NCBI GenBank assembly: GCA_964016885.1
Contig: OZ024752.1
Coordinates: forward strand, 38,192,001 to 38,256,000
Direction: 5' to 3'
DNA: 64,000 bases
Source: Eledone cirrhosa
Taxonomy: Eukaryota
Part shown: positions 8,515 to 58,417 of the stretch, one piece after another
Layout of the letters: every line of letters begins with the position of its first letter
Position numbering within the stretch: the stretch's first letter is position 1
Position numbers and translations under genes: made by a program
The notes under the pieces: model-generated
Told to the model about the DNA's origin: nothing
What the model saw: the letters and a program-made list of their open reading frames with translations, nothing else
Databases searched by the model: none

Positions 8515-10620
8515 ACACCAAGACGGAAGCAAAGGATAAAAAATTCAAGGATGTTTTGCAACGTGAGGACAAGAAATAGGTGTTCAAGATTGAGAGAGTT
8601 GTGATGTCATTGGAGAGAAGTGTATCCGGAATGATAAAGGTGAGCTTGCCCTCACAAGCTGAGAAGAAAGATGCATGGAAGAGTCATTATGATAGATTAC
8701 TAAATGAGAATGCATGGGAAGAAGAGACCCTATAGAGGGGCCAGCAGCAATGTAGTAAGTAAGGCAATCAAAGATATGAAGATGGGGAAGGCAACCGGTT
8801 CATCGGGTATAGCTGCCAAGATGCTGAAGGCATCTGTGTCTGTAGGTCACACTATTGTTAACCAGGTAATACTAGGTGTCATACCAAAAGATTGGTGCAG
8901 TAGCATCATTGTCAACTGCTACAAAGGTAAAGGTGATGCACTAGATAGAGGAAACTATAGAGGTATAAAGCTGATGGACCAGGTCATGAAAGTAACAAAG
9001 AGTTATAGCACAGTTAATTAGGGACCAGGTGAAAATAGACGAGATGCAATTTGGGTTTTTACCAGGCACCACTGATGTCCTCTTCCTTGTGAGGCAGCTA
9101 CAGGAAAAGTACCTAGCTAAAAGTAAGCCACTCTACTTGGCATTTGTCAACCTTGAGAAAGCCTTTGACAGAGTTCCACGTGCTGTAATCTGGTGGGCTC
9201 TTAGAAAACTAGGAGTAGATGAAAGCGGTACAAGCCATGTATAGGGAAGCAGTCAGCAAAGTTCGGAATAGCAATGAGTTTAGCGTACAGGTTGGTGTCC
9301 ACCAGGGCTCTGTTCATCATAGTCCTGCAGGCAATAACGGAGTTTAAGACCGGATGCCCATGGGAACTCCTGTATGCTGATGACCTCGCACTTATAGCTG
9401 AATCTATGGTAGAACTAGAGAATAAATTCCAAACTTGGAAGCATGGACTAGAAAGAAAGGGTCTCAAAGTCAACATGACAAAGACTAAGGTCCTTGTAAG
9501 TAGACGAGAAAACAGAACCCAGATCCCCTCAGGGAAATGGCCTTGCTCAGTATGTAGGAAAGGTGTAGGTAGGAACTCCATTCTCTGCCCCAAATGCAAG
9601 AGATGTAGCGGGATTTCAGGAAGCTTAATTAAGAATGTAGGCTTCACATGCAGCAGCTGTGCTGGGACAGCAAGCAGCAAACAGCCACAGGAAACAAGTA
9701 CCACCAATCTTTGGGAGGGCCCTGTAGAAACAGTAGACAGCTTCTGCTACCTAGGTGACCGAATTAGCAGCGGAGGTGGGTGTTCGGAAAGTACAATAAC
9801 TAGGGTAAGAACGGGATGGAAGAAGTTCAGGGAGCTACTGCCACTGCTAGCTGCAAAAAGCTTTTCCCTCAAAATGAAAGGCAGACTGTATGATGCGTGT
9901 ATACGAACAGCAATGTTACATGGTAGTGAGACCTGGGCACTGTCTGTGGAAGACTTGCGTAGATTAGAAAGAAACGAAGCCTGCATGCTCCGATGGATGT
10001 GTAATAGTAATATACACGAACGGCAAAGCATAAATGAATTGACAGAGACTGAGCATAAGAAGAATCAAATGCTGTGTGCAGGAGAGGCGGTTGCGCTGGT
10101 ATGGACATGTGATGCGTATGAAGGATGACAGCTGCATAAAAAGGTGCAGAGCACTAGAAGTCGATGGAAACCGCGGAGTGGGGAGACCCAAGATGACCTG
10201 GGATGAGGTGATAAAAGCCGACCTTACCCAATTACACCTCTCAAAGGCAATGACACACGACCGTGATCTCTGGCGTCACGCAGTAATACAGAGTACCCGA
10301 CCTCCCATGGGTACAAGCTGAAGCATATAGACAATATGCCCCCACACACCCCACCGCAAGGTGGTCGTGGAGGTGTCACGGCAAAAAAGCACCCAGCCCA
10401 CACTGTAAAGTGGACGTGTATGCGCCACGAAAAAGCACCCAGCACTCACTGTAAATGAGGTTGGTGTTAGGAAGGGCATCCAGCTGTAGAAATCAAGCCA
10501 AATCAGTTCCTGTATGAGCAAGGCATGGTCAGACAACCAGACACTGCCCACAACAGGACAACCCGTCTAACCCATGCTAGCATGGAAGAACGGATATAAA
10601 ACGGTGATGATGATGATGAT
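8515..10620 (+). mobile_element. 5'-truncated, frameshifted RTE-clade LINE in ETHE1 intron 5
   Basis: RT motifs KGKGDALDRGNYRGIKL, QFGF, AFVNLEKAFDRV, LLYADDL; C-terminal RRLRWYGHVMR and RGVGRPKMTW; (GAT)n tail. Confidence 0.92.
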
Positions 10621-20790: not shown

Positions 20791-23700
20791 CATCATCATC
20801 ATCATCATCATCATTGTTTAATGTCCATTTTTTCATGCCAGCATGGGTTAGATGAGTTGTCCTATTTGAGATGAGTCAGATCAGATGTCCATGTCTTGCT
20901 CATACAGAACCGTTTCTGACTTGGTTTCTATGGCTGGATGTCCTTCCGAACTCCAACCACATTTACAGTGTGGACACTTTTTGTTGTGTCACCCACATGA
21001 CCACTTTACAGAGAGAACTGAGCATTTTTTGCCATGTCACCTACATGACCATTTTACAGAGTGGATTCGGTGCTTTTTGTTGCAACACCCACATGACCAC
21101 TTTACAGCGTGGACTGGGTGCTTTTCGTTGCAACACCCACATGACCACTTTACAGAGTGGACTGGGTGCTTTTTGTTGCAACACCCACATGACCACTTTA
21201 CAGAGTGGACTGGGTGCTTTTTGTTGCAACACCCACATGACCACTTTACAGAGTGGACTGGGTGCTTTTCGTTGCAACACCCACATGACCACTTTACAGA
21301 GTGGACTAGGTGCTTTTTGTTGCAACACCCACATGACCACTTTACAGAGTGGACTGGGTGCTTTTTGTTGCAACACCCACATGACCACTTTACAGAATGG
21401 ACTAGGTGCCTTTTGTTGCAACACCCACATGACCACTTTACAGAATGGACTAGGTGCCTTTTGTTGCAACACCCACATGACCACTTTACAGAATGGACTA
21501 GGTGTTTTTTGTTGCAACACCCACATGACCACTTTACAGAATGGACTAGGTGCCTTTTGTTGCAACACCCACATGACCACTTTACAGAGTGGACTGGGTG
21601 CTTTTTGTTGCAACACCCACATGACCACTTTACAGAGTGGACTGGGTGCTTTTTGTTGCAACACCCACATGACCACTTTACAGAATGGACTAGGTGCCTT
21701 TTGTTGCAACACCAACATGACCACTTTACAGAATGGACTAGGTGCTTTTTGTTGCAACACCCACATGACCACTTTACAGAATGGACTAGGTGCCTTTTGT
21801 TGCAACACCCACATGACCACTTTACAGAGTGGACTGGGTGCTTTTTGTTGCAACACCCACATGACCACTTTACAGAATGGACTAGGTGCCTTTTGTTGCA
21901 ACACCCACATGACCACTTTACAGAATGGACTAGGTGCCTTTTGTTGCAACACCCACATGACCACTTTACAGAATGGACTAGGTGCCTTTTGTTGCAACAC
22001 CCACATGACCACTTTACAGAATGAACTAGGTGCCTTTCGTTGCAACACCCACATGACCACTTTACAGAATGCACTAGGTGCCTTTCGTTGCAACACCCAC
22101 ATGACCACTTTACAGAATGGACTAGGTGCCTTTCGTTGCAACACCCACATGACCACTTTACAGAATGGACTAGGTGCCTTTTGTTGCAACACCCACATGA
22201 CCACTTTACAGAATGGACTAGGTGCCTTTTGTTGCAACACCCACATGACCACTTTACAGAATGGACTAGGTGCCTTTTGTTGCAACACCCACATGACCCC
22301 TTTACAGAATGGACTAGGTGCTTTTTGTTGCAACACCCACATGACCCCTTTACAGAATGGACTAGGTGCTTTTTGTTGCAACACCCACATGACCCCTTTA
22401 CAGAATGGACTAGGTGCTTTTTGTTGCAACACCCACATGACCCCTTTACAGAATGGACTAGGTGCTTTTTGTTGCAACACCTACATGACCACTTTACAGA
22501 ATGGACTAGGTGCCTTTTGTTGCAACACCCACATGACCACTTTACAGAGTGGACTGGGTGCTTTTTGTTGCAACACCTACATGACCACTTTACAGAATGG
22601 ACTAGGTGCTTTTTGTTGCAACACCTACATGACCACTTTACAGAATGGACTAGGTGCTTTTTGTTGCAACACCTACATGACCACTTTACAGAGTGGACTG
22701 GGTGCTTTTTGTTGCAACACCTACATGACCACTTTACAGAATGGACTAGGTGCCTTTTGTTGCAACACCCACATGACCACTTTACAGAATGGACCAGGTG
22801 CTTTTTGTTGCAACACCTACATGACCACTTTACAGAATGGACTAGGTGCTTTTTGTTGCAACACCTACATGACCACTTTACAGAGTGGACTGGGTGCTTT
22901 TTGTTGCAACACCTACATGACCACTTTACAGAATGGACTAGGTGCTTTTTGTTGCAACACCTACATGACCACTTTACAGAATGGACTAGGTGCCTTTTGT
23001 TGCAACACCCACATGACCACTTTACAGAATGGACTAGGTGCTTTTTGTTGCAACACCCACATGACCACTTTACAGAATGGACTAGGTGCTTTTTGTTGCA
23101 ACACCTACATGACCACTTTACAGAATGGACTAGGTGTTTTTTGTTGCAACACCCACATGACCACTTTACAGAATGGACTAGGTGCTTTTTGTTGCAACAC
23201 CTACATGACCACTTTACAGAATGGACTAGGTGCCTTTTGTTGCAACACCCACATGACCACTTTACAGAGTGGACTGGGTGCTTTTTGTTGCAACACCCAC
23301 ATGACCACTTTACAGAGTGGACTGGGTGCTTTTTGTTGCAACACCTACATGACCACTTTACAGAATGGACTAGGTGCCTTTTGTTGCAACACCCACATGA
23401 CCACTTTACAGAGTGGACTGGGTGCTTTTTGTTGCAACACCCACATGACCACTTTACAGAGTGGACTCGGTGCTTTTTGTTGCAACACCTACATGACCAC
23501 TTTACAGAGTGGACTCGGTGCTTTTTGTTGCAACACCTACATGACCACTTTACAGAGTGGACTCGGTGCTTTTTGTTGCAACACCTACATGACCACTTTA
23601 CAGAATGGACTAGGTGCCTTTTGTTGCAACACCCACATGACCACTTTACAGAATGGACTAGGTGCTTTTTGTTGCAACACCCACATGACCCCTTTACAGA

Positions 23701-24197
23701 ATGGACTAGGTGCTTTTTGTTGCAACACCCACATGACCATTTTACAGAGTGGACTCGGTGCCTTTCGTTGCAACACCCACATGACCACTTTACAGAGTGG
23801 ACTCGGTGCTTTTTGTTGCAACACCTACATGACCACTTTACAGAGTGGACTCGGTGCTTTTTGTTGCAACACCTACATGACCACTTTACAGAATGGACTA
23901 GGTGCTTTTCGTTGCAACACCCACATGACCCCTTTACAGAATGGACTAGGTGCCTTTTGTTGCAACACCCACATGACCACTTTACAGAATGGACTAGGTG
24001 CTTTTTGTTGCAACACCCACATGACCCCTTTACAGAATGGACTAGGTGCTTTTTGTTGCAACACCTACATGACCACTTTACAGAGTGGACTGGGTGCTTT
24101 TCGTTGCAACACCCACATGACCACTTTACAGAGTGGACTAGGTGCTTTTTGTTGCAACACCCACATGACCACTTTACAGAGTGGACTGGGTGCTTTT
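20791..24197 (-). repeat. RTE 3' end (20791-20990) continuing into a 48-bp minisatellite of about 67 copies
   Basis: (CAT)n tail plus RTE 3' UTR, then unit ACACCCACATGACCACTTTACAGARTGGACTRGGTGCYTTTTGTTGCA. Confidence 0.95.
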
Positions 24198-24521
24198 TAA
24201 AAGATAATGGATTAAAATGTAAAATTGTTGAAATTAAGTTTGTTCAATAACAATTATTAACAGCCAGAATCCTTCTAAGTTGTTTATATTTCAGATATTC
24301 TCATTCTAGTTCTACATTGATTAAACACAGATATTCCCCTCATACATTGAATAAACTAACCTATGTGGTAAATGCTTTAATGTTGTTTACTTATGAGTAG
24401 ACACTAGAATGATAGAGATAAGGCAAGTAATGAGGACAAATAAATAAAATTAAATGGACCTTAAAATGGAATTTAAACCATGTCAAAACTTTAATAAATA
24501 TTATCTAGTATAGCCCTTAAA

Positions 24522-35354: not shown

Positions 35355-36358
35355 TAGACTGAAAGGTTCATAGGCTGACAATGAAGGAGTGATGCTAGAG
35401 CTGTGAAATCTTGCATGTATTCATTTCAACTCTTATTAATAACTACATTGTCTCTTTCCAGAGACTATGTTGAAAAATAAACCTCATTTGGTCATTCCAT
35501 GAGAGTATCTTGGTCAGCCTATGAAGGAGAGATGGTAGAGCTGTGAAATCTTGCATGTATTCATTTCAACTCTTCTTATTAATAACTACATTGTTTCTTT
35601 CCAGGGACTATGTTAAAAAATAAACCTCATGTGGTCATTCCATGAGAGTATCTTGGTCAGTCTATGAAGGAGAGATGGTAGAGCTGTGAAATCTTGCATG
35701 TATTCATTTCAACTCTTCTTATTAATAACTACATTGTTTCTTTCCAGGGACTATGTTGAAAAATAAACCTCATGTGGTCATTCCATGAGAGTATCTTGGT
35801 CAGTCTATGAAGGAGAGATGGTAGAGCTGTGAAATCTTGCATGTATTCATTTCAACTCTTCTTATTAATAACTACATTGTTTCTTTTCAGGGACTATGTT
35901 GAAAAATAAACCTCATGTGGTCATTCCATGAGAGTATCTTGGTCAGTCTATGAAGGAGAGATGCTAGAGCTGTGAAATCTTGCATACATTAATTTCAACT
36001 CTTCTTATTAATAACTGCATTGTTTCTTTTCAGGGACTATGTTGAAAAATAAACCTCATTTGGTCATTCCATGAGAGTATCTTAGTCAGCCTATGAAGGA
36101 GTGATGCTAGAGCTGTGAAATCTTGCATGTATTCATTTCAACTCTTCTTATTAATAACTACATTGTCTCTTTCCAGGGACTATGTTAAAAAATAAACCCC
36201 ATTTAGTCATTCCATGAGAGTATCTTAGTCAGCCTATGAAGGAGTGATGCTTGAGCTGTGAAATCTTGAATGTATTCATTTCAACTTTTCTTATTAATAA
36301 CTACATTGTTTCTTTCCAGAGACTATGTTAAAAAATAAACCCCATTTAGTCATTCCAT
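35355..36358. repeat. 143-bp tandem array (7 units) made from the mariner MITE body
   Basis: ATGAAGGAG recurs at 35381, 35521, 35664, 35807, 35950, 36093, 36236. Confidence 0.92.
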
Positions 36359-36600
36359 GGCCCGAACGTGTCTTTTCTCGGTTTTGGGTTTTTTTATTTT
36401 TTATTTCTTTAGATTTGCTTCTTTCTTTTGTAAACGATATTCGCCTTTTCTATAAACATAACTTACATTAAAGACAATATTTTTATTTGTTTCTTCAGCA
36501 TTCGTTAATCCCTCTGATCACCTGTTGCTTGTAAAAGTTGAGCTTCTTTGAGCTGTAATCACTCCTTGAACTCCTTCGACATATTCAGGAAGAATCATGC

Positions 36601-36674
<74 letters not shown>

Positions 36675-37938
36675 AAGTATGTATGTATGTATGTCAGATA
36701 ATGGAAAGGTCGAGAGGGAACCCCGTTATTGGTTGCTATGCAGTTGGCTTCATTTAGTTTTCAATCCTGCAATTGAATAATCAAACTCTTCTTCTTCTTC
36801 TTCTTCTTCCTGGGAGGGTCGTGGAGACAGAGTCCTCAAATACACCTTCTAGCAAGTTCTGTCAGAATGACAATGATGAAAAAGAAAGGCTTCACTTAGC
36901 ATAATTATTGGTGTGAACTTTGGAAAAAAAAAACTTGAACGATGAAGAAAACGATGAAAAAAAAAGGCAATGGTTCATCGAAAATAAATGTTCCTGTTGA
37001 AATGTTTTAAAAAAAATATCAAATTTCTTTTTTTTTGTTGTTTTGAAAGTGTTCGTTGTAAGAAACGAGAAACATATATATATATCGTGAAATGCGACAG
37101 TTAGTTGATGCGTGAGAGAAAAAGTCTGTCTGAACGCGAATTTCACATGTGCGTGGTGTGTTCGTTTCTTTGACAGTATTTTCATAGTTTGTCAATAAAT
37201 TTGCTGTGTATTCGTAATGTTACTCACACAACACCAGATTCTGCTATTTTTTTCTTTTTTCGGGGTGACCACTTATAACAATGAACGGCTGCGTGTTCGT
37301 ATCACGTCAGGGTTACCAATATAGCGGTGATCTAGCGGTGTATGAATGTAACAAGGAGACATGGTTTGTGTGTATAATATTTAATCAACAATTTAACAGT
37401 ATAGTTGACATGTCAATGAATAAACGAAAGAATGAAACAAAGTTAGTAGTTACCGTTTTGATTGCCAGGCAAACGCAGGCTGGCAGAAGACGCCTGGCGA
37501 AGGCCAGGCGCCGGAAGGGCAAATGAGAGAGTGAGAACTTAAAGTTGTTAGTTTTATAGGGTTCTGACCGGAAGTTACAGAAAGGGTTCTACTTCCCGTC
37601 TAGATGTTGTTAATCTATTGGGGTTGTGAGTCACAACAAGGGAAGCAACTGCTACATACACCTTCTAGCAGGTTCTGTTGATCCTGCAACATCCCTAAGC
37701 GAGACCAGCTGAGCTCATGAATGTTATCCAGCCATCTTGTTCGTCGTTTACCCCTGGGTATCCTGCAGGCTGATTTTACACGTAAAATCTGTCCAGCGAT
37801 GTATAAATTAACGTTTATTAATATTTTGAATTAATATTAATAACTCCAGAAAACCTATTTGTTGAGTGCTTCTAATCTATTGTAAAACTATATTCATTGA
37901 TTAATCAATGAACCTTGTTTAACTTTTGGTTATATATA

Positions 37939-38020
<82 letters not shown>

Positions 38021-38101
38021 GTAGGAGGTGAGTTTTATTGTAGTACAATAAAGCAATGCAGATATCGGATAAGAAGCACTCTACAATTTGTAGGACTGGA
38101 G

Positions 38102-38462
38102 TATACATAATATATAAGAACAAAAGATGGTTAAAAGAGTTCCATGTATTTTATTATGCGCATTTCAAAAACAAATATCATCATGCAATAATATTTGTGT
38201 TTTCATCAGATAAAACAGGAAGACATGATATGAAGGTTAAAAAACACTTGTGGATAGTTCAGTTTTAAATCAACATATATATCAAATATGTTGATTTAAA
38301 ACTGCACTATCCACAAGTGTTTTTTAACCTTCATATCATGTCTTCCTGTTTTATCTGATGAAAACACAAATATTATTGCATGATGATATTTGTTTTTGAA
38401 ATGCGCATAATAAAATACATGGAACTCTTTTAACCATCTTTTGTTCTTATATATTATGTATA
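38102..38462. repeat. Near-perfect foldback palindrome (177-bp arms, 7-nt loop) between (TA)n tracts
   Basis: 38102-38278 is the reverse complement of 38286-38462, one mismatch seen. Confidence 0.95.
38348..38416 (+). ncRNA. Type I hammerhead ribozyme motif (family A); mirror copy 38148-38216 (-)
   Basis: gttttat-CTGATGA-aaacacaaatat/atatttgttttt-GAAA-tgcgca-TA^ataaaat: complete core, stems I and II pair, palindromic stem III ATGCGCAT. Confidence 0.78.
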
Positions 38463-38465
38463 TAT

Positions 38466-38499
<34 letters not shown>

Positions 38500-38642
38500 A
38501 TATATATGTATATAGAGAGCGAGATCAGGAATATACTAGTTTTAAACTAATAAGATTATTATTCAGCAGATTACTCGAGTCCGGAATTTGCAGTCGAAAC
38601 GGCAAGAGCTAAGTCGTCGGGCCCTGACTCTCCAACCCACCC

Positions 38643-38764
<122 letters not shown>

Positions 38765-38770
38765 GAATAA

Positions 38771-39605
38771 ATTTAGTCCTTCATCAGTGATCTTCCAACC
38801 TTCATTGGTATTTCATCGCTTTAAAGACCATATATCTCCGGTTGGTGCGAGCAACGGCTAAAGAAAGTCGTTGGGGCACGTAAATAGGGGGAACGAGGGA
38901 GACAGTAAACAATCAAAGATAGTAATGCAACGAAAAGTGAGGAAGAAGGAGTCAAGTCCCTGAAATCGATGAACATAAGTTCTGTGAAATCGTGGACGAG
39001 AGAGAATAAAGACCATCAAACCTGGTCGAAATGTGAGTAAGGAAAGAATTTCGCACAGGTCAAACGGGAGGAAGAAGGAATCAAGTCCCTGAAATCGATG
39101 AACATAAGTTCTGTGAAATCGTAGACGAGAGAGAATAAAGACCATACGACCTGGTCGAAGTGTGCGTGAGGAAAGAATCTCGCGCAGGTCAAACGGGAGG
39201 AAGTAGGAGAGGGAGTAGCAGAGAGTGAGTGAGTGAAAGTGTGAGGAAGAGGCTAACAGAGAGAGTGACTGTTAGAGGGGGTAAAAGGAAGTGAGAGATA
39301 CAGAGAAAAGGGGAAGCAGTAAGAAAGAAACAAACGGGTCACAGCGGAGGAAAATGTATATGAAAAATATGAAAACATGGCGTGCTGCGTGGTTGCAAAT
39401 GGGTTACATATGAATAAATTTAGTCCTTCATCAGTGATCTTGCAACCTTCCTTTACCATCTTTGATTGTTTACTGTCTCGCTCGTTCCCCTTATTTACGT
39501 GTCCCAACGACTTTCTTTAGCCGTTGCTCGCACCAACCGGAGGTATACGGTCTTTAAAGCTATGAAATACCAATGAAGGTTGGAAGATCACTGATGAAGG
39601 ACTAT
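38771..39605. repeat. Foldback with ~155-bp inverted arms and an internal ~129-bp tandem duplication (38941-39200)
   Basis: 38771-38925 is the reverse complement of 39452-39605; the arms carry CTGATGAAGGACT pointing outward into (TA)n. Confidence 0.85.
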
Positions 39606-39713
39606 ATATATATATAAATATATATGCAAAAGTTCTATTTAAAATTGTTGGGATACAACAAGTAAATATTTTATAACTGGTATAAAGCATTCGACAAGTT
39701 TTTGGAGTAGATA

Positions 39714-40347
39714 CACGATATTAAATAAATGGAAACTATATTTATAAAACCATATTTATTTCATTATACTTATCTCAGGGATACCAAATTAAAATATGGT
39801 ATGCCTTCATCAGACAAAATACAATATATAAACAGTTTATTAAATGCAACCATTATTTTTGGAAGCTGTCTGGATAGTGAGATTTTTATAATTATTTTAT
39901 TAGTTATAGTGTTAAGCACAGTTAGAAAAAGACGGAGAGAAAGAAAAAAACCGAGAGAGAGAAGGAGAGAGAAAAATTTCCTCCTATCTATTTATATCTT
40001 TCTTTTCTACATACATTTCTCTCTCTCCGATATTTCTCCAGGTTTTCTTTTTCTCTCTCTCCTTCTTTTTCTCTCTCCTTCTCTCTCTCCGTTTTTTCTT
40101 TCTCTCCGTCTTTTTCTAACTGTGCTTAACACTATAACTAATAAAATAATTATAAACATCTCACTATCCAGACAGCGTCCAAAAATAATGGTTGCATTTA
40201 ATAGGGTACGTCAAAATTATTTATAAAACTGTTTATATATTGTATTTTGTCTGATGAAGGCATACCATATTTTAATTTGGTATCCCTGAAATATGTATAA
40301 TGAAATAAATATGGTTTTATAAATATAGTTTCCATTTATTTAATATC

Positions 40348-40349
<2 letters not shown>
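39714..40349. repeat. Foldback palindrome, arms about 260 bp, ending at (TA)n
   Basis: 39714-39975 is the reverse complement of about 40070-40349, apart from a ~23-nt insertion at 40203-40225. Confidence 0.92.
40243..40307 (+). ncRNA. Type I hammerhead ribozyme motif (family B); mirror copy 39757-39819 (-) has GAAA changed to GAGA
   Basis: tattttgt-CTGATGA-aggcatacc/ggtatccct-GAAA-tatgta-TA^atgaaata. Confidence 0.72.
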
Positions 40350-40396
<47 letters not shown>

Positions 40397-43210: not shown

Positions 43211-46200
43211 TGTTATTAGAGGTAAAATAACACGACAAAATAAATGGTTTCGTTTAAATATAAAATTTACTTCACTTCAGTTAATAAAGGAACAAAGAAT
43301 AAGATTACTACAAATCATAAAGGTTGGCGATGTTATTTCGTTATATTGAAATAGAGAGTGACTGGATATCGTTTATTAGTAATTGCAGCAAGGTAGTAGT
43401 CAAAGCTCAGTGACAAGAGTAGGTGAGAGTCTGTAAGACCAAGAGAGAGAGAGTAAAGGTCTATAGACTCCAAGGGTCTGTAAAAAGCAAATGTTTTATA
43501 TCATTACTCGAACTGCTTCGAACCGCCTTTGCTTGGTCTAAGACAGGCTATTTATATCTGTCGCTTCCTCTGTCCCCTACCTCGAGAACCACCGGGGATG
43601 ACCTCGAGAAATCTCCCACGCATAGACTTGTTTACACCAAAAAGGCGGTAACCCAGAATTTGACCGTTAAATATCACCCAGGGGTCAAGGCGTGGACAGA
43701 TTTCGCTACAAATGTGCCACTGCATGTCGCGTTTCAGATGAGGCATTTAAATGTCACCTAGGGGTCAAAGTGTGGGCAGATTTCGCTACAAATGTGCCAC
43801 TGCATAGCGCGTTTCAGATGAGGCATTTAAATGTCACCTAGGGATCAAAGTGTGGACAGATTTCGCTACAAATGTGCCACTGCATGTCGCGTTTCAGATG
43901 AAGCATTTAAATGTCACCTAGGGGTCAAAGTGTGGACAGATTTCGCTACAAATGTGCCACTGCATGTCGTCTTTCAGATGAGGCATTTAAATGTCACCTA
44001 GGGGTCAAAGTGTGGACAGATTTCGCTAAAAATCTGCCACTGCATGTCGCGTTTCAGATGAGGCATTTAAATGTCACCTAGGGGTCAAAGTGTGGACAGA
44101 TTTCGCTACAAATGTGCCACTGCATGTCGCGTTTCAGATGAGGCATTTAAATGTCACCCAGGGGTCAAAGTGTGGACAGATTTCGCTACAAATGTGCCAC
44201 AGCATGTCGCGTTTCAGATGAGGCATTTAAATGTCACCTAGGGGTCAAAGTGTGGACAGATTTCGCTACAAATGTGCCACTGCATAGCGCGTTTCAGATG
44301 AGGCATTTAAATGTCACCTAGGGATCAAAGTGTGGACAGATTTCGCTACAAATGTGCTACTGTATGTCGCGTTTCAGATGAGGCATTTAAATGTCAGCCA
44401 GGGGTCAAGGCGTGGACAGATTTCGCTACAAATGTGCCACTGCATGTCGCGTTTCAGATGAGGCATTTAAATGTCACCTAGGGGTCAAAGTGTGGACAGA
44501 TTTCGCTACAAATGTGCCACTGCATAGCGCGTTTCAGATGAGGCATTTAAATGTCACCTAGGGATCAAAGTGTGGACAGATTTCGCTACAAATGTGCCAC
44601 TGCATGTCGCGTTTCAGATGAAGCATTTAAATGTCACCTAGGGGTCAAAGTGTGGACAGATTTCGCTACAAATGTGCCACTGCATGTCGTGTTTCAGATG
44701 AGGCATTTAAATGTCACTTAGGGGTTAAAGTGTGGACAGATTTCGCTACAAATGTGCCACTGCATGTCGCGTTTCAGATGAGGCATTTAAATGTCACTTA
44801 GGGGTTAAAGTGTGGACAGATTTCGCTACAAATGTGCCACTGCATGTCGCGTTTCAGATGAGGCATTAAAATGTCACCTAGGGGTCAAAGTGTGGTCAGA
44901 TTTCGCTACAAATGTGCCACTGCATGTCGCGTTTCAGATGAGGCATTTAAATGTCACCCAGGGGTCAAGGTGTGGACAGATTTCGCTACAAATGTGCCAC
45001 AGCATGTCGTGTTTCAGATGAGGCATTTAAATGTCACCTAGGGGTCAAAGTGTGGACAGATTTCGCTACAAATGTGCCACACATGTCGCGTTTCAGATGC
45101 GGCATTTAAATGTCACCTAGGGGTCAAAGTGTGGACAGATTTCGCTACAAATGTGCCACTGCATGTCGCGTTTCAGATGAGGCATTTAAATGTCACCTAG
45201 GGGTCAAAGTGTGGACAGATTTCGCTACAAATGTGCCACTGCATGTCGCGTTTCAGCTGAGGCATTTAAATGACACCCAGGGGTCAAAGTGTGGACAGAT
45301 TTCGCTACAAATGTGCCACTGCATGTCGCGTTTCAGCTGAGGCATTTAAATGTCACCCAGGGGTCAAGGTGTGGACAGATTTCGCTACAAATGTGCTACT
45401 GTATGTCGCGTTTCAGATGAGGCATTTAAATGTCACCTAGGGGTCAAAGTGTGGACAGATTTCGCTACAAATGTGCCACTGCATAGCGCGTTTCAGATGA
45501 GGCATTTAAATGTCACCTCGGGATCAAAGTGTGGACAGATTTCGCTACAAATGTGCCACTGCATGTCGCGTTTCAGATGAAGCATTTAAATGTCACCTAG
45601 GGGTCAAAGTGTGGACAGATTTCGCTACAAATGTGCCACTGCATGTCGCGTTTCAGATGAGGCATTTAAATGTCACCTAGGGGTCAAAGTGTGGACAGAT
45701 TTCGCTACAAATGTGCCACACATGTCGCGTTTCAGCTGAGGCATTTAAATGTCACCCAGGGGTCAAAGTGTGGACAGATTTCGCTACAAATGTGCCACTG
45801 CATGTCGCGTTTCAGCTGAGGCATTTAAATGTCACCCAGGGGTCAAGGTGCGGACAGATTTCGCTACAAATGTGCTACTGTATGTCGCGTTTCAGATGAG
45901 GCATTTAAATGTCACCTAGGGGTCAAAGTGTGGACAAATTTCGCTACAAATGTGCCACTGCATGGCGCGTTTCAGATGAGGCATTTAAATGTCACCTAGG
46001 GGTCAAAGTGTGGACAGATTTCGCTACAAATGTGCCACTGCATGTCGCGTTTCAGATGAGGCATTTAAATGTCACCTAGGGGTCAAAGTGTGGGCAGATT
46101 TCGCTACAAATGTGCCACTGCATAGCGCGTTTCAGATGAGGCATTTAAATGTCACCTAGGGATCAAAGTGTGGACAGATTTCGCTACAAATGTGCCACTG

Positions 46201-49200
46201 CATGTCGCGTTTCAGATGAAGCATTTAAATGTCACCTAGGGGGCAAAGTGTGGACAGATTTCGCTACAAATGTGCTACTGCATGTCGTGTTTCAGATGAG
46301 GCATTTAAATGTCACCTAGGGGTCAAAGTGTGGACAGATTTCGCTACAAATGTGCCACTGCATGTCGCGTTTCAGATGAGGCATTTAAATGACACCCAGG
46401 GGTCAAAGTGTGGACAGATTTCGCTACAAATGTGCCACTGCATGTCGCGTTTCAGATGAGGCATTTAAATGTCACCCAGGGGTCAAGGTGTGGACAGATT
46501 TCGCTACAAATGTGCCACAGCATGTCGTGTTTCAGATGAGGCATTTAAATGTCACCTAGGGGTCAAAGTGTGGACAGATTTCGCTACAAATGTGCCACAC
46601 ATGTCGCGTTTCAGCTGAGGCATTTAAATGTCACCCAGGGGTCAAAGTGTGGACAGATTTCGCTACAAATGTGCCACTGCACGTCGCGTTTCAGCTGAGG
46701 CATTTAAATGTCACCCAGGGGTCAAGGTGCGGACAGATTTCGCTACAAATGTGCTACTGTATGTCGCATTTCAGATGAGGCATTTAAATGTCACCTAGGG
46801 GTCAAAGTGTGGACAAATTTCGCTACAAATGTGCCACTGCATGGCGCGTTTCAGATGAGGCATTTAAATGTCACCTAGGGGTCAAAGTGTGGACAGATTT
46901 CGCTACAAATGTGCCACTGCATGTCGCGTTTCAGATGAGGCATTTAAATGTCACCTAGGGGTCAAAGTGTGGGCAGATTTCGCTACAAATGTGCCACTGC
47001 ATAGCGCGTTTCAGATGAGGCATTTAAATGTCACCTAGGGATCAAAGTGTGGACAGATTTCGCTACAAATGTGCCACTGCATGTCGCGTTTCAGATGAAG
47101 CATTTAAATGTCACCTAGGGGTCAAAGTGTGGACAGATTTCGCTACAAATGTGCTACTGCATGTCGTGTTTCAGATGAGGCATTTAAATGTCACCTAGGG
47201 GTCAAAGTGTGGACAGATTTCGCTACAAATGTGCCACTGCATGTCGCGTTTCAGCTGAGGCATTTAAATGACACCCAGGGGTCAAAGTGTGGACAGATTT
47301 CGCTACAAATGTGCCACTGCATGTCGCGTTTCAGCTGAGGCATTTAAATGTCACTTAGGGGTTAAAGTGTGGACAGATTTCGCTACAAATGTGCCACTGC
47401 ATGTCGCGTTTCAGATGAGGCATTAAAATGTCACCTAGGGGTCAAAGTGTGGTCAGATTTCGCTACAAATGTGCCACTGCATGTCGCGTTTCAGATGAGG
47501 CATTTAAATGTCACCCAGGGGTCAAGGTGTGGACAGATTTCGCTACAAATGTGCCACAGCATGTCGTGTTTCAGATGAGGCATTTAAATGTCACCTAGGG
47601 GTCAAAGTGTGGACAGATTTCGCTACAAATGTGCCACACATGTCGCGTTTCAGATGCGGCATTTAAATGTCACCTAGGGGTCAAAGTGTGGACAGATTTC
47701 GCTACAAATGTGCCACTGCATGTCGCGTTTCAGATGAGGCATTTAAATGTCACCTAGGGGTCAAAGTGTGGACAGATTTCGCTACAAATGTGCCACTGCA
47801 TGGCGCGTTTCAGCTGAGGCATTTAAATGACACCCAGGGGTCAAAGTGTGGACAGATTTCGCTACAAATGTGCCACTGCATGTCGCGTTTCAGCTGAGGC
47901 ATTTAAATGTCACCCAGGGGTCAAGGTGTGGACAGATTTCGCTACAAATGTGCTACTGTATGTCGCGTTTCAGATGAGGCATTTAAATGTCACCTAGGGG
48001 TCAAAGTGTGGACAGATTTCGCTACAAATGTGCCACTGCATGTCGCGTTTCAGATGAGGCATTTAAATGTCACCTAGGGATCAAAGTGTGGACAGATTTC
48101 GCTACAAATGTGCCACTGCATGTTGCGTTTCAGATGAAGCATTTAAATGTCACCTAGGGGTCAAAGTGTGGACAGATTTCGCTACAAATGTGCCACTGCA
48201 TGTCGCATTTCAGATGAGGCATTTAAATGTCACCCAGGGGTCAAGGTGTGGACAGATTTCGCTACAAATGTGCCACAGCATGTCGTGTTTCAGCTGAGGC
48301 ATTTAAATGTCACCCAGGGGTCAAGGTGCGGACAGATTTCGCTACAAATGTGCTACTGTATGTCGCGTTTCAGATGAGGCATTTAAATGTCACCTAGGGG
48401 TCAAAGTGTGGACAGATTTCGCTACAAATGTGCCACTGCATGTCGTGTTTCAGATGAAGCATTTAAATGTCACCTAGGGGTCAAAGTGTGGACAGATTTC
48501 GCTACAAATGTGCCACTGCATGGCGCGTTTCAGATGAGGCATTTAAATGTCACCTAGGGGTCAAAGTGTGGACAGATTTCGCTACAAATGTGCCACTGCA
48601 TGGAGCGTTTCAGATGAGGCATTTAAATGTCACCTAGGGGTCAAAGTGTGGTCAGATTTCGCTACAAATGTGCCACTGCATGTCGCGTTTCAGATGAGGC
48701 ATTTAAATGTCACCCAGGGGTCAAGGTGTGGACAGATTTCGCTACAAATGTGCCACAGCATGTCGCGTTTCAGATGAGGCATTTAAATGTCACCTAGGGG
48801 TCAAAGTGTGGACAGATTTCGCTACAAATGTGCCACACATGTCGCGTTTCAGCTGAGGCATTTAAATGTCACCCAGGGGTCAAAGTGTGGACAGATTTCG
48901 CTACAAATGTGCCACTGCATGTCGCGTTTCAGCTGAGGAATTTAAATGTCACCCAGGGGTCAAGGTGCGGACAGATTTCGCTACAAATGTGCTACTGTAT
49001 GTCGCGTTTCAGATGAGGCATTTAAATGTCACCTAGGGGTCAAAGTGTGGACAAATCTCGCTACAAATGTGCCACTGCATGGCGCGTTTCAGATGAGGCA
49101 TTTAAATGTCACCTAGGGGTCAAAGTGTGGACAGATTTCGCTACAAATGTGCCACTGCATGTCGCGTTTCAGATGAGGCATTTAAATGTCACCTAGGGGT

Positions 49201-50109
49201 CAAAGTGTGGACAGATTTCGCTACAAATGTGCCACTGCATGTCGCGTTTCAGCTGAGGCATTTAAATGTCACCCAGGGGTCAAGGTGTGGACAGATTTCG
49301 CTACAAATATGCTACTGTATGTCGCGTTTCAGATGAGGCATTTAAATGTCACCTAGGGGTCAAAGTGTGGACAGATTTCGCTACAAATGTGCCACTGCAT
49401 GTCGCGTTTCAGATGAGGCATTTAAATGTCACCCAGGGGTCAAAGTGTGGACAGATTTCGCTACAAATGTGCCACTGCATGTCGCGTTTCAGCTGAGGCA
49501 TTTAAATGTCACCCAGGGGTCAAGGTGTGGACAGATTTCGCTACAAATGTTCTACTGTATGTCGCGTTTCAGATGAGGCATTTAAATGTCACCTAGGGGT
49601 CAAAGTGTGGACAAATTTCGCTACAAATGTGCCACTGCATGGCGCGTTTCAGATGAGGCATTTAAATGTCACCTAGGGGTCAAAGTGTGGACAGATTTCG
49701 CTACAAATGTGCCACTGCATGTCGCGTTTCAGATGAGGCATTTAAATGTCACCTAGGGGTCAAAGTGTGGACAGATTTCGCTACAAATGTGCCACTGCAT
49801 GTCGCGTTTCAGATGAGGCATTAAAATCTCACCTAGGGGTCAAAGTGTCGACAGATTTCGCTACAAATGTGCCACTGCATGGCGCGTTTCAGATGAGGCA
49901 TTTAAATGTCACCTAGGGGTCAAAGTATGGACAGATTTCGCTACAAATGTGCCACTGCATGTCGCGTTTCAGATGAGGCATTTAAATGTCACCTAGGGGT
50001 CAAAGTGTGGACAGATTTCGCTACAAATGTGCCACTGCATGGCGCGTTTCAGATGAGAGATTTACCTCCTTCGAAATCTGTAGTAGGATTTCCAGCAGAT
50101 ATGAAGACA
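43211..50109 (-). mobile_element. Putative solo LTR containing the 80-bp satellite
   Basis: TG..CA termini flanked by TAAG at 43207-43210 and 50110-50113; on minus strand a TATA box (about 43549-43558) followed by AATAAA (about 43372-43378). Confidence 0.5.
43670..50057. repeat. 80-bp satellite, about 80 copies
   Basis: Unit AAATGTCACCTAGGGGTCAAAGTGTGGACAGATTTCGCTACAAATGTGCCACTGCATGTCGCGTTTCAGATGAGGCATTT, with recurring 79-bp variants. Confidence 0.97.
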
Positions 50110-50222: not shown

Positions 50223-50420
50223 CTCGCAATGGCGAGATCATTATTGTTTCGTTCTTTTTTTTTATATTTTCGCTCTCGGCAAGAACATTAAAACTGTAAA
50301 AACAACAACAAAAACAAATATAATAAACATAATCAAGAAAATGTACGATAGAAATTCTCTTTCGTCAGAAAGGAAAGTTTTCTTTGAAGAAGTATTATTA
50401 TTATTTACGAACCTTTACGA

Positions 50421-51369
50421 ATGGAAGGAGTAGTACTGAAAGACAAAACATATAGTATTTATCACAATGGAACGACTGAAGTCTGTCATGTCTTAATGGA
50501 ACTGCGTAGCGCCGGAGAACTATGTGATGCTGAAATTTGGGTAGGAAACACATCTTTCCCAATTCATCGTGTGATTTTATCATCCAGTAGTACCTATTTC
50601 AGGGTACTTTTCACCAACGAGAGATTTCAAGGTAATCGTCAGAAAGTGATTGTTCCCAACATCGGCATCAATACAATGAGTTCAATTCTAGAGTTTGCAT
50701 ACACACAAGAGTGTTGTATTAACCACCATAATGTCGAAGATCTTCTAATAGCTGCCGATTATTTCAATATGATTCGTCTTTTGCAATGTTGCTGTGAATT
50801 TCTCACGACTCGACTAACTGCAGAAAACTGTATCGGAGTTAAGAGACTTGCTCAAATATATTCATGTCAGGAATTAGAATTTGCGGCTCACAGATATATC
50901 CTGCAAAACTTCTCAGTTGTATATAGACAATCGGATGAGTTCCAGCGCCTGGATATTGATGATATCAGCAATATTCTTTCTTCAGACTATCTCAATGTAA
51001 AATCGGAAGAAATAGTTTTTGATGGGATTGTTGATTGGATCAATTACGATTCGAACTCCAGAAAACATCATTTGAACCGACTTTTGCAAAATGTACGCTT
51101 TGAACTAACGCCTGCTTGTTTCATTGAACGAGTTCAGAGATATTGCTGTTTATGTAGCGAAGACTATTCCGATAATTTATCTCGTATTCCAGTACCATTT
51201 TCCCCCATGGAAGCTCTCAACAGATCACATTTAAGTTTACCAACTGCAAGAATTCCAAATCAAATTTTGTTTGTCATAGGTGGCTGGAGTGGTGGAAGTC
51301 CGACTGGAATCATAGAAACGTACGATATAAGGGCGGATTGTTGGATTGAATGTCCAGCTGTAAATTCAG
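50421..51369 (+). CDS. KLHL10: Kelch-like protein (KLHL10-like) exon 1: BTB + BACK + start of Kelch repeats
   Basis: LMELRSAGELCD..FPIHRVILSSSSTYFRVLFT (BTB); 'LFVIGGWSGGSPTGIIETYDIRADCW' resembles KLHL10; donor cag|gttcgt, phase 1. Orthology is by recall only. Confidence 0.85.
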
Positions 51370-53115
51370 GTTCGTCTTTTGGAAATAGTTTTTATTGTTG
51401 CACTATAGAAGGGCGGTGGATTGGCAGTATCGGTAGCGGGTCGGACGCCATGCTTTTCAGCATAGAGTTACGGCCCTTTATGATCTGAGTTCAAATCCTG
51501 CCGAGGTTAACTTTGCCTTTCATCCTTAAAGGGGTCGATAACATAAAGTACCAGTCACGCACTGGGGTCGATTTAATCGACTTTCCCCTCCCTCGAAATT
51601 GATGGCCTTGTGCCTATATGAGAAACCATTGTTGCACTGTAGAGAAAATTGAGTTACACATGCGACGATAGGCAGGAAAGTTCTTAGGCTGACTATGAAG
51701 GAATGATGCTAGAGCTGTGAAATCTCGCATGCATTAATTTGAACTCTTAATAACTGCATTGTTTCTTTGTAAGGACAATGTTGAAAAATAAACCTCATTT
51801 GATCATTCCATGAGAGTATTTTGGTCAGCCTATGAAGGAATGATGCTAGAGTTGTGAAATCTTGCATGCATTAATTTCAACTCTTATTAACAACTGCATT
51901 GTTTCTTTCCATGGATTATGTTGAAAAATAAACCTCATTTGGTCATTCCATGAGAGTATCTTGGTCAGCCTATGGCCTTTTCAGCTGATCCTCATATAAC
52001 AACTGCATTATTTCTTTCCAGGGAGGTTGACTTTGCCTTTCATCCTTACGGGGTCGATAAAATAAAGTACTAGTAATGCACTGGGTAATTGCTGGCCTTG
52101 TGCCTAAAGTAGAAACAATTATTTCTTTCCAGGGACTATGTTGAAAAATAAGCCCTCATTTGGTCATTCCATGAGAGTATCTTGGTCAGCCTATGAACAT
52201 TTAGCCGACCCTCTTAGTAACAGTTTGTGTTATATGGAACTGAATAATGTCAGTTGCTTTTGTTTTGTTTTGGTGTAACACTCTATGTTAATTCGTTCAA
52301 ATAGAAAACAATGTCAGTTTGTATACAATACTTTATTAATTTCTTTCTCATATATTAGTCTCCATCCCAATCGACAATACCAGTGTCTCCCATTTCCTTA
52401 CTTTCAAGCAAAAGCTAAAGTTCAGAAACGTTAGGCTATAAAACTCATGACGAATGAACTTTTTTAATGACTAATCTTTTGCCAACGCAAACTAAAGAAA
52501 GGTCTAGTAAAGAAATTATTTCAAATCCCACCGAAGTTTACTTTGCCTTTCATCCTTACGACGTCGATAAAATATAATACTAGTAACACACTGGGTTCGA
52601 TTTAATCGACTTTCCCCTCAGCCCCAAATTGTTGGCCTTGTGCCTAAATTGGATTGGCAGTATCGGTTGAGCGTCAGACAGCACGCTTTGCAGCATAGAA
52701 TTATGGCCCTTTACGTTCTGATATCAAATCCCGCCGAGGCTAACTTTACCTTTCATCCTTACGAGGTCGATAAAATAAAGTACTAGTAATGCACTGGGGT
52801 AATTACTGGCCTTGTGCCGAAAGTAGAAACCATTTTTATTGTTTTAGTTGATACTTGAATTTCTCCACGTGTTTCAGTGGAACTCCACTCACATGAAGGG
52901 TTTTAATTGATTAAATAGATAAATAAATAAATAGTTATTTTTTTAACGGGATGTAAGGCGTGTATTTTATTCACAAAGTTGGCTTAAAAACCTTTGATGA
53001 TTAGATAAGTATGAAAAATAAAGATAATAGCCAAATTAAATAATGAAAAAGAAAAAGGGGGGAAAGAGGTAAAGAAGGGCAGATCTGATAAATAAATAAA
53101 TAAATAATTCATTGT

Positions 53116-56034: not shown

Positions 56035-57157
56035 GTAAGACATGCAGTGACAGACATGTAGTGTAAGACATGTAGTGAAAGACATGTAGTGAAAGACATG
56101 TAGTGAGAGACATGTAGTGTAAGACATGTAGTGAAAGACATGTAGTGTAAGACATGCAGTGACAGACATGTAGTGTAAGACATGCAGTGACAGACATGTA
56201 GTGTAAGACATGTAGTGACAGACATGTAGTGTAAGACATGTAGTGACAGACATGCAGTGACAGACATGTAGTGACAGACATGTAGTGTAATAGATGGAGG
56301 AACAGACATGTAGTGTAAGACATGCAGTGACAGACATGCAGTGTAAGACATGCAGGGTAAGACATGTAGTGTAAGACATGTAGTGACATACATGTAGTGT
56401 AAGACACGTAGTGTAAGACATGTAGTGACATACATGTAGTGTAAGACACGTAGTGTAAGACATGTAGTGACATACATGTAGTGTAAGACACGTAGTGTAA
56501 GACATGTAGTGACATACATGTAGTGTAAGACACGTAGTGTAAGACATGTAGTGACATACATGTGGTGTAATAGATGTAGGAACAGACATGTAGTGTAAGA
56601 CATGTAGTGTAAGACACGTAGTGTAAGACATGTAGTGACATACATGTAGTGTAAGACATGTAGTGAAATAGATGTAGGAACAGACATGTAGTTTAAGACA
56701 TGTAGTGAAAAACATGTAGTGTAATAGATGTAGGAACAGACATGTAGTTTAAGACATGTAGTGTAAGACATGTAGTGACAGACATGTAGCGTAAGACATG
56801 TATTGACAGACATGTAGTGTAAGACATGTAGTGAAAAACATGTAGTGTAAGACATGTAGTGACAGACGTGCAGTGTAAGACATGCAGTGACAGACATGTA
56901 GTGTAAGACATGTATTGACAGACATGTAGTGTAAGACATGTAGTGACAGACATGTAGTGACAGACATGTAGTGTAATAGATGGAGGAACAGACATGTAGT
57001 GTAAGACATGTAGTGACAGACATGTAGTGTAAGACATGTAGTGACAGACATGTAGTGACAGACATGTAGTGTAATAGATGGAGGAACAGACATGTAGTGT
57101 AAGACATGTAGTGACAGACATGTAGTGTAAGACATGTAGTGACAGACATGTAGTGAC
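56035..57157. repeat. 14-bp minisatellite starting at the exon 3 donor
   Basis: Units GTAAGACATGTAGT / GACAGACATGTAGT with interspersed GTAATAGATGGAGGAACAGAC variants. Confidence 0.95.
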
Positions 57158-57867: not shown

Positions 57868-57930
57868 TATTTTATCTGAAGAAAGCGTACCAAAGTGTTT
57901 TGGTACCCTTGAAATATATATAATAAAATA
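57868..57930 (+). ncRNA. Type I hammerhead ribozyme motif (family B), sense to KLHL10 intron 3
   Basis: tattttat-CTGAAGA-aagcgtacc/ggtaccctt-GAAA-tatata-TA^ataaaata; stem I is a perfect 8 bp. Confidence 0.78.
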
Positions 57931-58276: not shown

Positions 58277-58315
<39 letters not shown>

Positions 58316-58344
58316 ATCAAAAGATGGTTAAAGGAGTTCCATAT

Positions 58345-58413
58345 ATTTTATTATGCGCATTTCAAAAACAAACATCATCATGCAATAATATTTGTGTTTT
58401 CATCAGATAAAAC
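58345..58413 (-). ncRNA. Type I hammerhead ribozyme motif (family A) on a ~107-bp insert between two (TA)n tracts
   Basis: Same sequence as 38148-38216; TTTC at 58360, TCATCAG at 58400-58406. Confidence 0.72.
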
Positions 58414-58417
58414 ATCC

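Follow-up and report, generated by a model that had tools for sequence, protein, structure and literature searches.

A hammerhead-bearing palindrome between (TA)n tracts of Eledone cirrhosa, read as a short insertion of a Penelope-like element

Within the window, a 64-kb stretch of contig OZ024752.1 of the octopod Eledone cirrhosa, a palindrome set between (TA)n microsatellites is probably a short head-to-head insertion of a Penelope-like element (PLE) of the Hydra clade, for which the RT/GIY-YIG protein would have cut the (TA)n target and the front of a capped sense RNA would have been copied from both strands. In support of this reading, and with arm positions numbered from the first base (r1), one arm corresponds to the pseudo-LTR (pLTR, r1-r177) and the other to the pLTR with its tail (r1-r260), in each case that of a 3.66-kb element carrying an RT + GIY-YIG ORF. 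Taken alone, the palindrome is an unremarkable by-product of a class already known, from a very abundant octopod family with an active-looking 3.7-kb element. Its value is mechanistic, as the thousands of young, countable junctions of the family favour a capped sense RNA, priming on two strands and an uncleaved ribozyme.

The palindrome and its hammerhead motifs

Inverted-repeat analysis of the window gives two arms of 177 nt each (38102-38278 and 38286-38462) that are 99% complementary and surround a 7-nt centre. The arm lengths, their sole mismatch (38259/38305) and the flanking (TA)n tracts (Table 1) are as in the preliminary description, which had taken 38102-38462 for the whole element. 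Those limits hold for the palindrome. However, the palindrome is separated from the left (TA)n by 83 nt that had been overlooked. These are the element's tail, which places the element boundary at 38019; the tail sequence of the left arm is also present in other copies. A recent event had been proposed from the near identity of the arms. The family is young, with copies elsewhere 98-100% identical, but the mismatch falls on a site that is polymorphic in the family, so that the likeness of the arms is a poor guide to age when taken by itself.

Table 1. Parts of the insertion and its flanks, in window coordinates
Feature	Position	Strand	Remarks
Left (TA)n microsatellite, insertion target	37931-38018	.	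(TA)n tract; arms end in (TA)n family-wide
Left arm, pLTR + tail	38019-38278	-	260 nt, from the putative transcription start (r1 = 38278)
Tail	38019-38101	-	83 nt; in long copies continues directly into the ORF leader
Mirror type I hammerhead motif	38147-38217	-	predicted cut 3' of 38155; CTGATGA...GAAA mirror span 38163-38209
Junction filler	38279-38285	.	7 nt separating the two 5' ends; differs among copies
Right arm, pLTR without tail	38286-38462	+	177 nt, same start base (r1 = 38286); ends in AT-rich internal site
Type I hammerhead motif	38347-38417	+	predicted cut 3' of 38409 (AUA)
Right (TA)n microsatellite	38448-38514	.	part outside the arm 38463-38514

Each strand carries a type I hammerhead with a palindromic stem III, as had been claimed, when judged as a motif: the core elements CUGANGA, GAAA and NUH occur together with stems I-III. 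On the plus strand these are CTGATGA (38355-38361), GAAA (38398-38401) and an AUA triplet ending at 38409, with stem I formed by 38347-38354 and 38410-38417, stem II within 38362-38397 and the 8-nt stem III at 38401-38408. Stem II is indeed long, at 15 bp with one mismatch in place of the approximately 12 bp given before, and its base is an A-U pair instead of G10.1-C11.1, the conserved G-C at the base of hammerhead stem II being noted in PMC4209133. A scan with hammerhead models had been suggested as a check and gave no such match: across the window no Rfam hammerhead family appeared at the gathering score, and over 37900-38700 at E<=10 the matches were miRNA hairpin models on the palindrome, with no hammerhead among them.

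Folding of the monomer is no better than that of shuffled sequence (z -1.36), and stem I is absent in the predicted fold of a single-arm RNA; the predicted dimer is more stable (-34.7 versus 2 x -11.3 kcal/mol). Dimers formed through stem III are how PLE hammerheads are described in PMC6765202 and PMC4209133. From the folding models, activity of the present hammerhead is predicted only for a dimer, on single-arm or full-length RNA, and a transcript spanning the whole palindrome would form one long hairpin. Conservation among copies is also pertinent. In 100 arms that were not picked by hammerhead words, substitutions number 4/1,086 in the core and 113/8,500 around it (p 0.005, for sites that are not independent), which is the excess conservation proposed earlier as a test, and the common helix variants retain pairing, mostly via G-U.

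The family and its coding element

A 29-mer over the hammerhead core has 11,783 exact matches in the 3.0-Gb genome (reversed control, 0), and a version with one variant base adds a further 2,424 (control, 0), giving at least 14,200 hammerhead arms genome-wide; the copy count that had been called for is that of a young high-copy family. Many of the 29-mer matches form divergent pairs 0.1-5 kb apart, with the ORF inside the long ones. About 2,230 palindromes are centred on r1 (2,224/2,232; control 16/5); their fillers vary, and the junction met most often is perfectly palindromic, with a shared ATAT. Transcript contigs from four runs, aligned to the left arm, are family variants only and give no start or strand information. 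A shortened solo arm of the same family, 95% identical, lies elsewhere in the window between (TA)n tracts (58298-58414, minus strand).

The partner of the short copies is a PLE of approximately 3.66 kb with an 800-aa RT + GIY-YIG ORF. In many copies the same pLTR stands about 1 kb downstream of the ORF and 78 nt upstream of it, and in other copies the tail leads straight into the ORF leader. Units of approximately 3,658 bp form a tandem array on contig C6, while at another locus, L070, an 821-codon open frame (800 aa from Met) lies within a head-to-head pair. The right arm of the window is 99.4% identical to the pLTR of an ORF-linked copy, L132, whose ORF is broken. The preliminary description was right in regarding the sequence as a PLE-type pLTR, and the linked RT/GIY-YIG ORFs for which it advised a search do exist. 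Its stand-alone non-autonomous family has had to be given up, given that the pLTR is ORF-linked and that short and long copies have haplotypes in common. The array (L120-L122, C6, 38.07-38.09 Mb) comprises about six 3.66-kb tandem units with a shared frameshift between the RT and EN parts, and has an inverted arm on its left; a further Hydra-like ORF fragment is found immediately upstream of the array (L120:3-1181).

Assignment of the partner element to the Hydra clade is by sequence motifs, with reference proteins compared by eye. The motifs of the ORF are RLRW(T), DKT (HSDKTN), YRDD, CxCX5C, CxxC..E and N..CxH, without CCHH. They agree with those given for the clade in Craig 2021 (PMC8557442), namely a single ORF with RT followed by GIY-YIG, an RWK-type motif (its third residue here being T or I, not K), DKT instead of DKG, a CxCX5C linker, CxxC/CxH beside E and N, and no CCHH; a type I hammerhead in the pLTR and (TA)n targets are further points of likeness to the clade as treated there. 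That the one ORF combines an RT with a C-terminal GIY-YIG domain is indicated, for the former, by YRDD and a TERT-like predicted fold (pLDDT 82.8; the nearest structure is telomerase RT, TERT 3du5, E 5e-7) and, for the latter, by a weak Pfam match and the motif layout. The full ORF drew no Pfam match; among 6 element frames one had a weak GIY-YIG match (E 0.006), and RVT_1 and GIY-YIG were each matched in 1/25 aligned members; a PDB sequence search with the ORF gave noise only. In the L070 ORF a predicted disordered, N/P/T-rich insert at residues ~580-655, between RT and linker, recalls the asparagine-rich inserts of rotifer Penelope elements (PMC3846280).

Paired arms, the start base and the course of insertion

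Most insertions, when mapped on the natural unit, are two head-to-head arms with their 3' ends out in (TA)n, and the (TA)n targeting proposed at the outset extends to the whole family. A sample of 120 divergent pairs (of mixed selection, some loci having been taken in position order and others by pattern, with contig C1 as the main source) includes 107 in which one arm ends at the tail end (r259-260) and the other at an AT-rich site near r165-180; the remainder are 10 two-tailed pairs, 1 tailless and 2 other. Thirteen subfamily sites agree within 70/85 comparable pairs versus 9.4% of random pairs, and shared rare sites within pairs number 18. Such sharing fits one RNA, two sibling RNAs or later gene conversion alike. 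Two different source RNAs per insertion were considered and rejected, the 18 differences at subfamily sites in 84 pairs (L126 was dropped as not being a true pair) being about background divergence by a hand estimate.

The commonest pLTR haplotypes among short arms are found in UTR-linked arms too. A candidate short-only subfamily, marked by an r88 allele (26 arms, 0 UTR-linked), turned out to be a sampling artefact, the allele being UTR-linked in 8/30 copies when fairly sampled. Because short and UTR-linked arms share haplotypes, and because the one exception fell away, the short copies (stubs) arise repeatedly from several coding-element subfamilies. They have the make-up of a PLE insertion unit, with a pLTR common to an ORF-bearing element, an inverted 5'-truncated partner and a tail at one end; the samples of copies yielded no lineage of their own, inherited junction or alleles absent from coding copies, as an independent non-autonomous family would have.

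With regard to the start of the arms, a fixed 5' end among top BLAST matches was discarded as selection bias and the matter retested by patterns and by position order. Of 100 arms taken in position order, r1 is the precise first base in about 30 (37 by script, 7 of which were reclassed by hand). The arms that reach r1 number 9,735, and 2,484 of them match one upstream continuation, counting exact matches only. In the genome r1 is preceded by C; among those of the 9,735 arms with a different base in that place, it is G in 1,839 and A or T in 1,787, i.e. 51% G versus an expected 0.22-0.26. At the r126 and r128 truncation points G was found in 4/26 on reading by hand. Hand inspection of 30 G junctions gave 19 with Gs not from the partner arm, 6 microhomologies with the partner and 5 ambiguous cases.

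The context of r1, TCA(+1)T, is like the initiator consensus, and r1 lies inside CATATG. For L1, an untemplated G together with a pyrimidine/purine initiator has been read as a reverse-transcribed cap (PMC9341517), and the transcription start of Penelope is inside its pLTR (PMC2377424). From these sequence features we infer r1 to be the transcription start of the element. A further peculiarity is a direct repeat of the initial 8 bases in 168 arms, in some of them present three times, and 19/20 inspected instances (L267-L286) are 5' junctions. Telomerase-like realignment on a cap-derived C at the template's 5' end is a possible source of the repeats, and host end-joining could yield them as well.

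The ribozyme cut is marked by at most a small excess of 5' ends (225 versus 148 at a control base in raw counts, of which about 17/30 versus 9/30 are true truncations). There is no pile-up comparable to that at r1, and therefore the template is mostly uncut RNA. Copies that retain the 5' end of the ORF behave differently. Among 30 of these, 1 begins near r1, 15 run past r1 into upstream 3' UTR (5 of the 15 belonging to one array) and 14 start further in. With 1/30 starting near r1, long cDNAs would come mostly from templates passing r1, by tandem read-through, circles or jumps. A capped-RNA model alone does not explain the long copies, for which read-through or circular templates are needed, and it is there that the ribozyme may act.

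In the probable course of a short insertion, the element's own RT/GIY-YIG protein would cut (TA)n on both strands, after which one DNA end would prime at the tail end of the capped sense RNA and the other at the AT-rich internal site approximately 85 nt upstream, in 5' RNA not cut by the ribozyme. Both cDNAs would run off at the cap (r1), and their self-complementary 3' ends, ATAT, would then anneal or be joined with a few filler bases. With two-strand priming and joining of this kind the palindrome would be built anew at each insertion, and it is probably a dead end. A pertinent precedent in vitro is PAc, a Poseidon element of Anolis (Frangieh 2024, PMC11167929), where at an AT-rich target both strands are cut and extended, two internal RT starts bound the tail and uncleaved RNA is used. 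PAc belongs to another clade and its starts lie in the ORF and are not target-homologous, whereas the starts in the present family are TA-like and situated upstream of the ORF. More tentative, and falling somewhat short of an even balance, is the generalization that PLE integration is two-ended, an RT dimer priming both strands of one (TA)n cut, always at the tail on one side and internally on the other, with run-off at the cap and sometimes recopying of 8 bases on the cap-derived C. If it is true, the stubs constitute a genomic record that rules out antisense self-priming and maps the PLE start to the base.

Some of the same observations could be accommodated by a single priming event, in which one cDNA or antisense RNA folds back at ATAT and is copied into the mirror arm. 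An antisense-RNA proposal for palindromic junctions was published by Arkhipova 2013 (PMC3846280), the commonest junction here is just such a perfect ATAT palindrome, and the common alleles and 18 shared rare sites of paired arms are as expected of it. Even so, the longer arm of long pairs may be either the tailed or the untailed one, G precedes both arms in some junctions (L182/L183), and the fixed 5' ends with their extra G suggest that the template was a capped sense RNA, which leaves self-priming unlikely as the general route; a fold-back step confined to the perfect-ATAT class is compatible with the data.

Less probable again is a self-propagating non-autonomous family whose palindromes or arms would undergo transcription and be mobilized in trans by PLE protein. 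Approximately 2,230 copies of the same form, arms that each have the putative start, a hammerhead motif and a priming site, and the ability of rotifer PLE pLTRs to act in trans (PMC3846280) would all suit it, but the junctions vary among copies, the commonest short-arm haplotypes are UTR-linked as well, and so is the allele that had seemed short-only. Very improbable is the notion that r1 is a mere hotspot of DNA cutting or RT pausing at a TA-like site, its G a generic untemplated addition. CATATG is target-like, AT-rich DNA within the pLTR of PAc is nicked by that element itself (PMC11167929) and ORF-bearing copies seldom start at r1; set against this are the lack of G enrichment at other truncation points, the initiator-like context, and the stopping of both arms at r1 in thousands of independent events.

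Known relatives and other features of the window

Earlier publications already describe 5'-truncated inverted copies, tails on one side, hammerheads in the pLTR and targeting of (TA)n, and the origin of inverted pLTRs and tails in PLEs is stated as open in Arkhipova 2013 (PMC3846280) and Craig 2021 (PMC8557442). The PLE insertion unit of the former, and of the fig. 2 legend of the latter, also has head-to-head arms, a palindromic junction and a tail at one end; here, by comparison, both arms are reduced to the pLTR, one fixed start base recurs in about 2,230 copies, and the one-tail rule and the extra G have been counted. The same mirror form is found in Penelope-13_HM of Hydra (supplement, Craig 2021), where a 5'-truncated copy is inverted and both strands carry a hammerhead. 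Hydra-1_Obim of Octopus bimaculoides is different, with 2,507 bp against the 3.66-kb unit of the present family, another hammerhead and a protein from which that of the partner is, by eye, clearly divergent. An AUA triplet in place of the GUH of all Hydra rows of File S2, a 15-bp stem II and an ~85-nt tail set the family apart from catalogued Hydra families, the tail also exceeding the 30-40 bp described, a point against the proposed course of insertion. Non-LTR retrozymes (bioRxiv 10.64898/2026.07.22.740005) are similarly non-coding, PLE-derived and equipped with a type I hammerhead, but as presented in that source they are direct tandem repeats with a hammerhead per unit, whereas the window has an inverted pair.

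The suggestion that the family may be undescribed stands within the one catalogue checked, the Craig 2021 supplement, from which its hammerhead and element words are absent and among whose families it does not figure. The literature covered has nothing on this family, nor on a cap-derived G at junctions of PLEs, nor on a one-tail rule backed by counts; the family may be present in Repbase, Dfam or subscription papers. A paper on O. vulgaris repeats (PMC13282606) has Penelope families in its list, without ribozymes. From a practical perspective, the exact RNA (r1-r260 + leader), protein and target can be named for an in vitro test. Fragile sites or dsRNA may, in addition, arise from the approximately 2,200 long palindromes.

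Several other features of the window are of note. A second hammerhead-bearing family with the same construction is present at 39640-40393 (inverted arms 39708-39949 and 40092-40356); only its left arm has a tail-like extension, and its right arm ends in (TA)n. It has an AUA triplet and a TA-rich stem III, and its relatives at 57876 (plus strand) and 28401 (minus strand) have compensatory stem II changes. The element at 38753-39625 lies between microsatellites and has inverted ends of 178 bp; it contains 129-bp repeats internally and CTGATGA near each end with no obvious GAAA, and is possibly another PLE-type insertion. At 50597-50642 (minus strand) there is a CUGACGA...GAAA motif with a GUA triplet in unrelated sequence. 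An RVT_1 fragment occurs at 9223-10128 (plus strand), and 20977-24198, 43667-50064, 35381-36359 and 56035-57155 are taken up by large tandem arrays, whose units measure 48, 80, 143 and 28 bp. The coding stretch at 50388-51488 (plus strand) is for a kelch-like protein 10 (BTB, BACK, Kelch), 83% identical to a kelch protein of O. bimaculoides and 82% to that of O. vulgaris.
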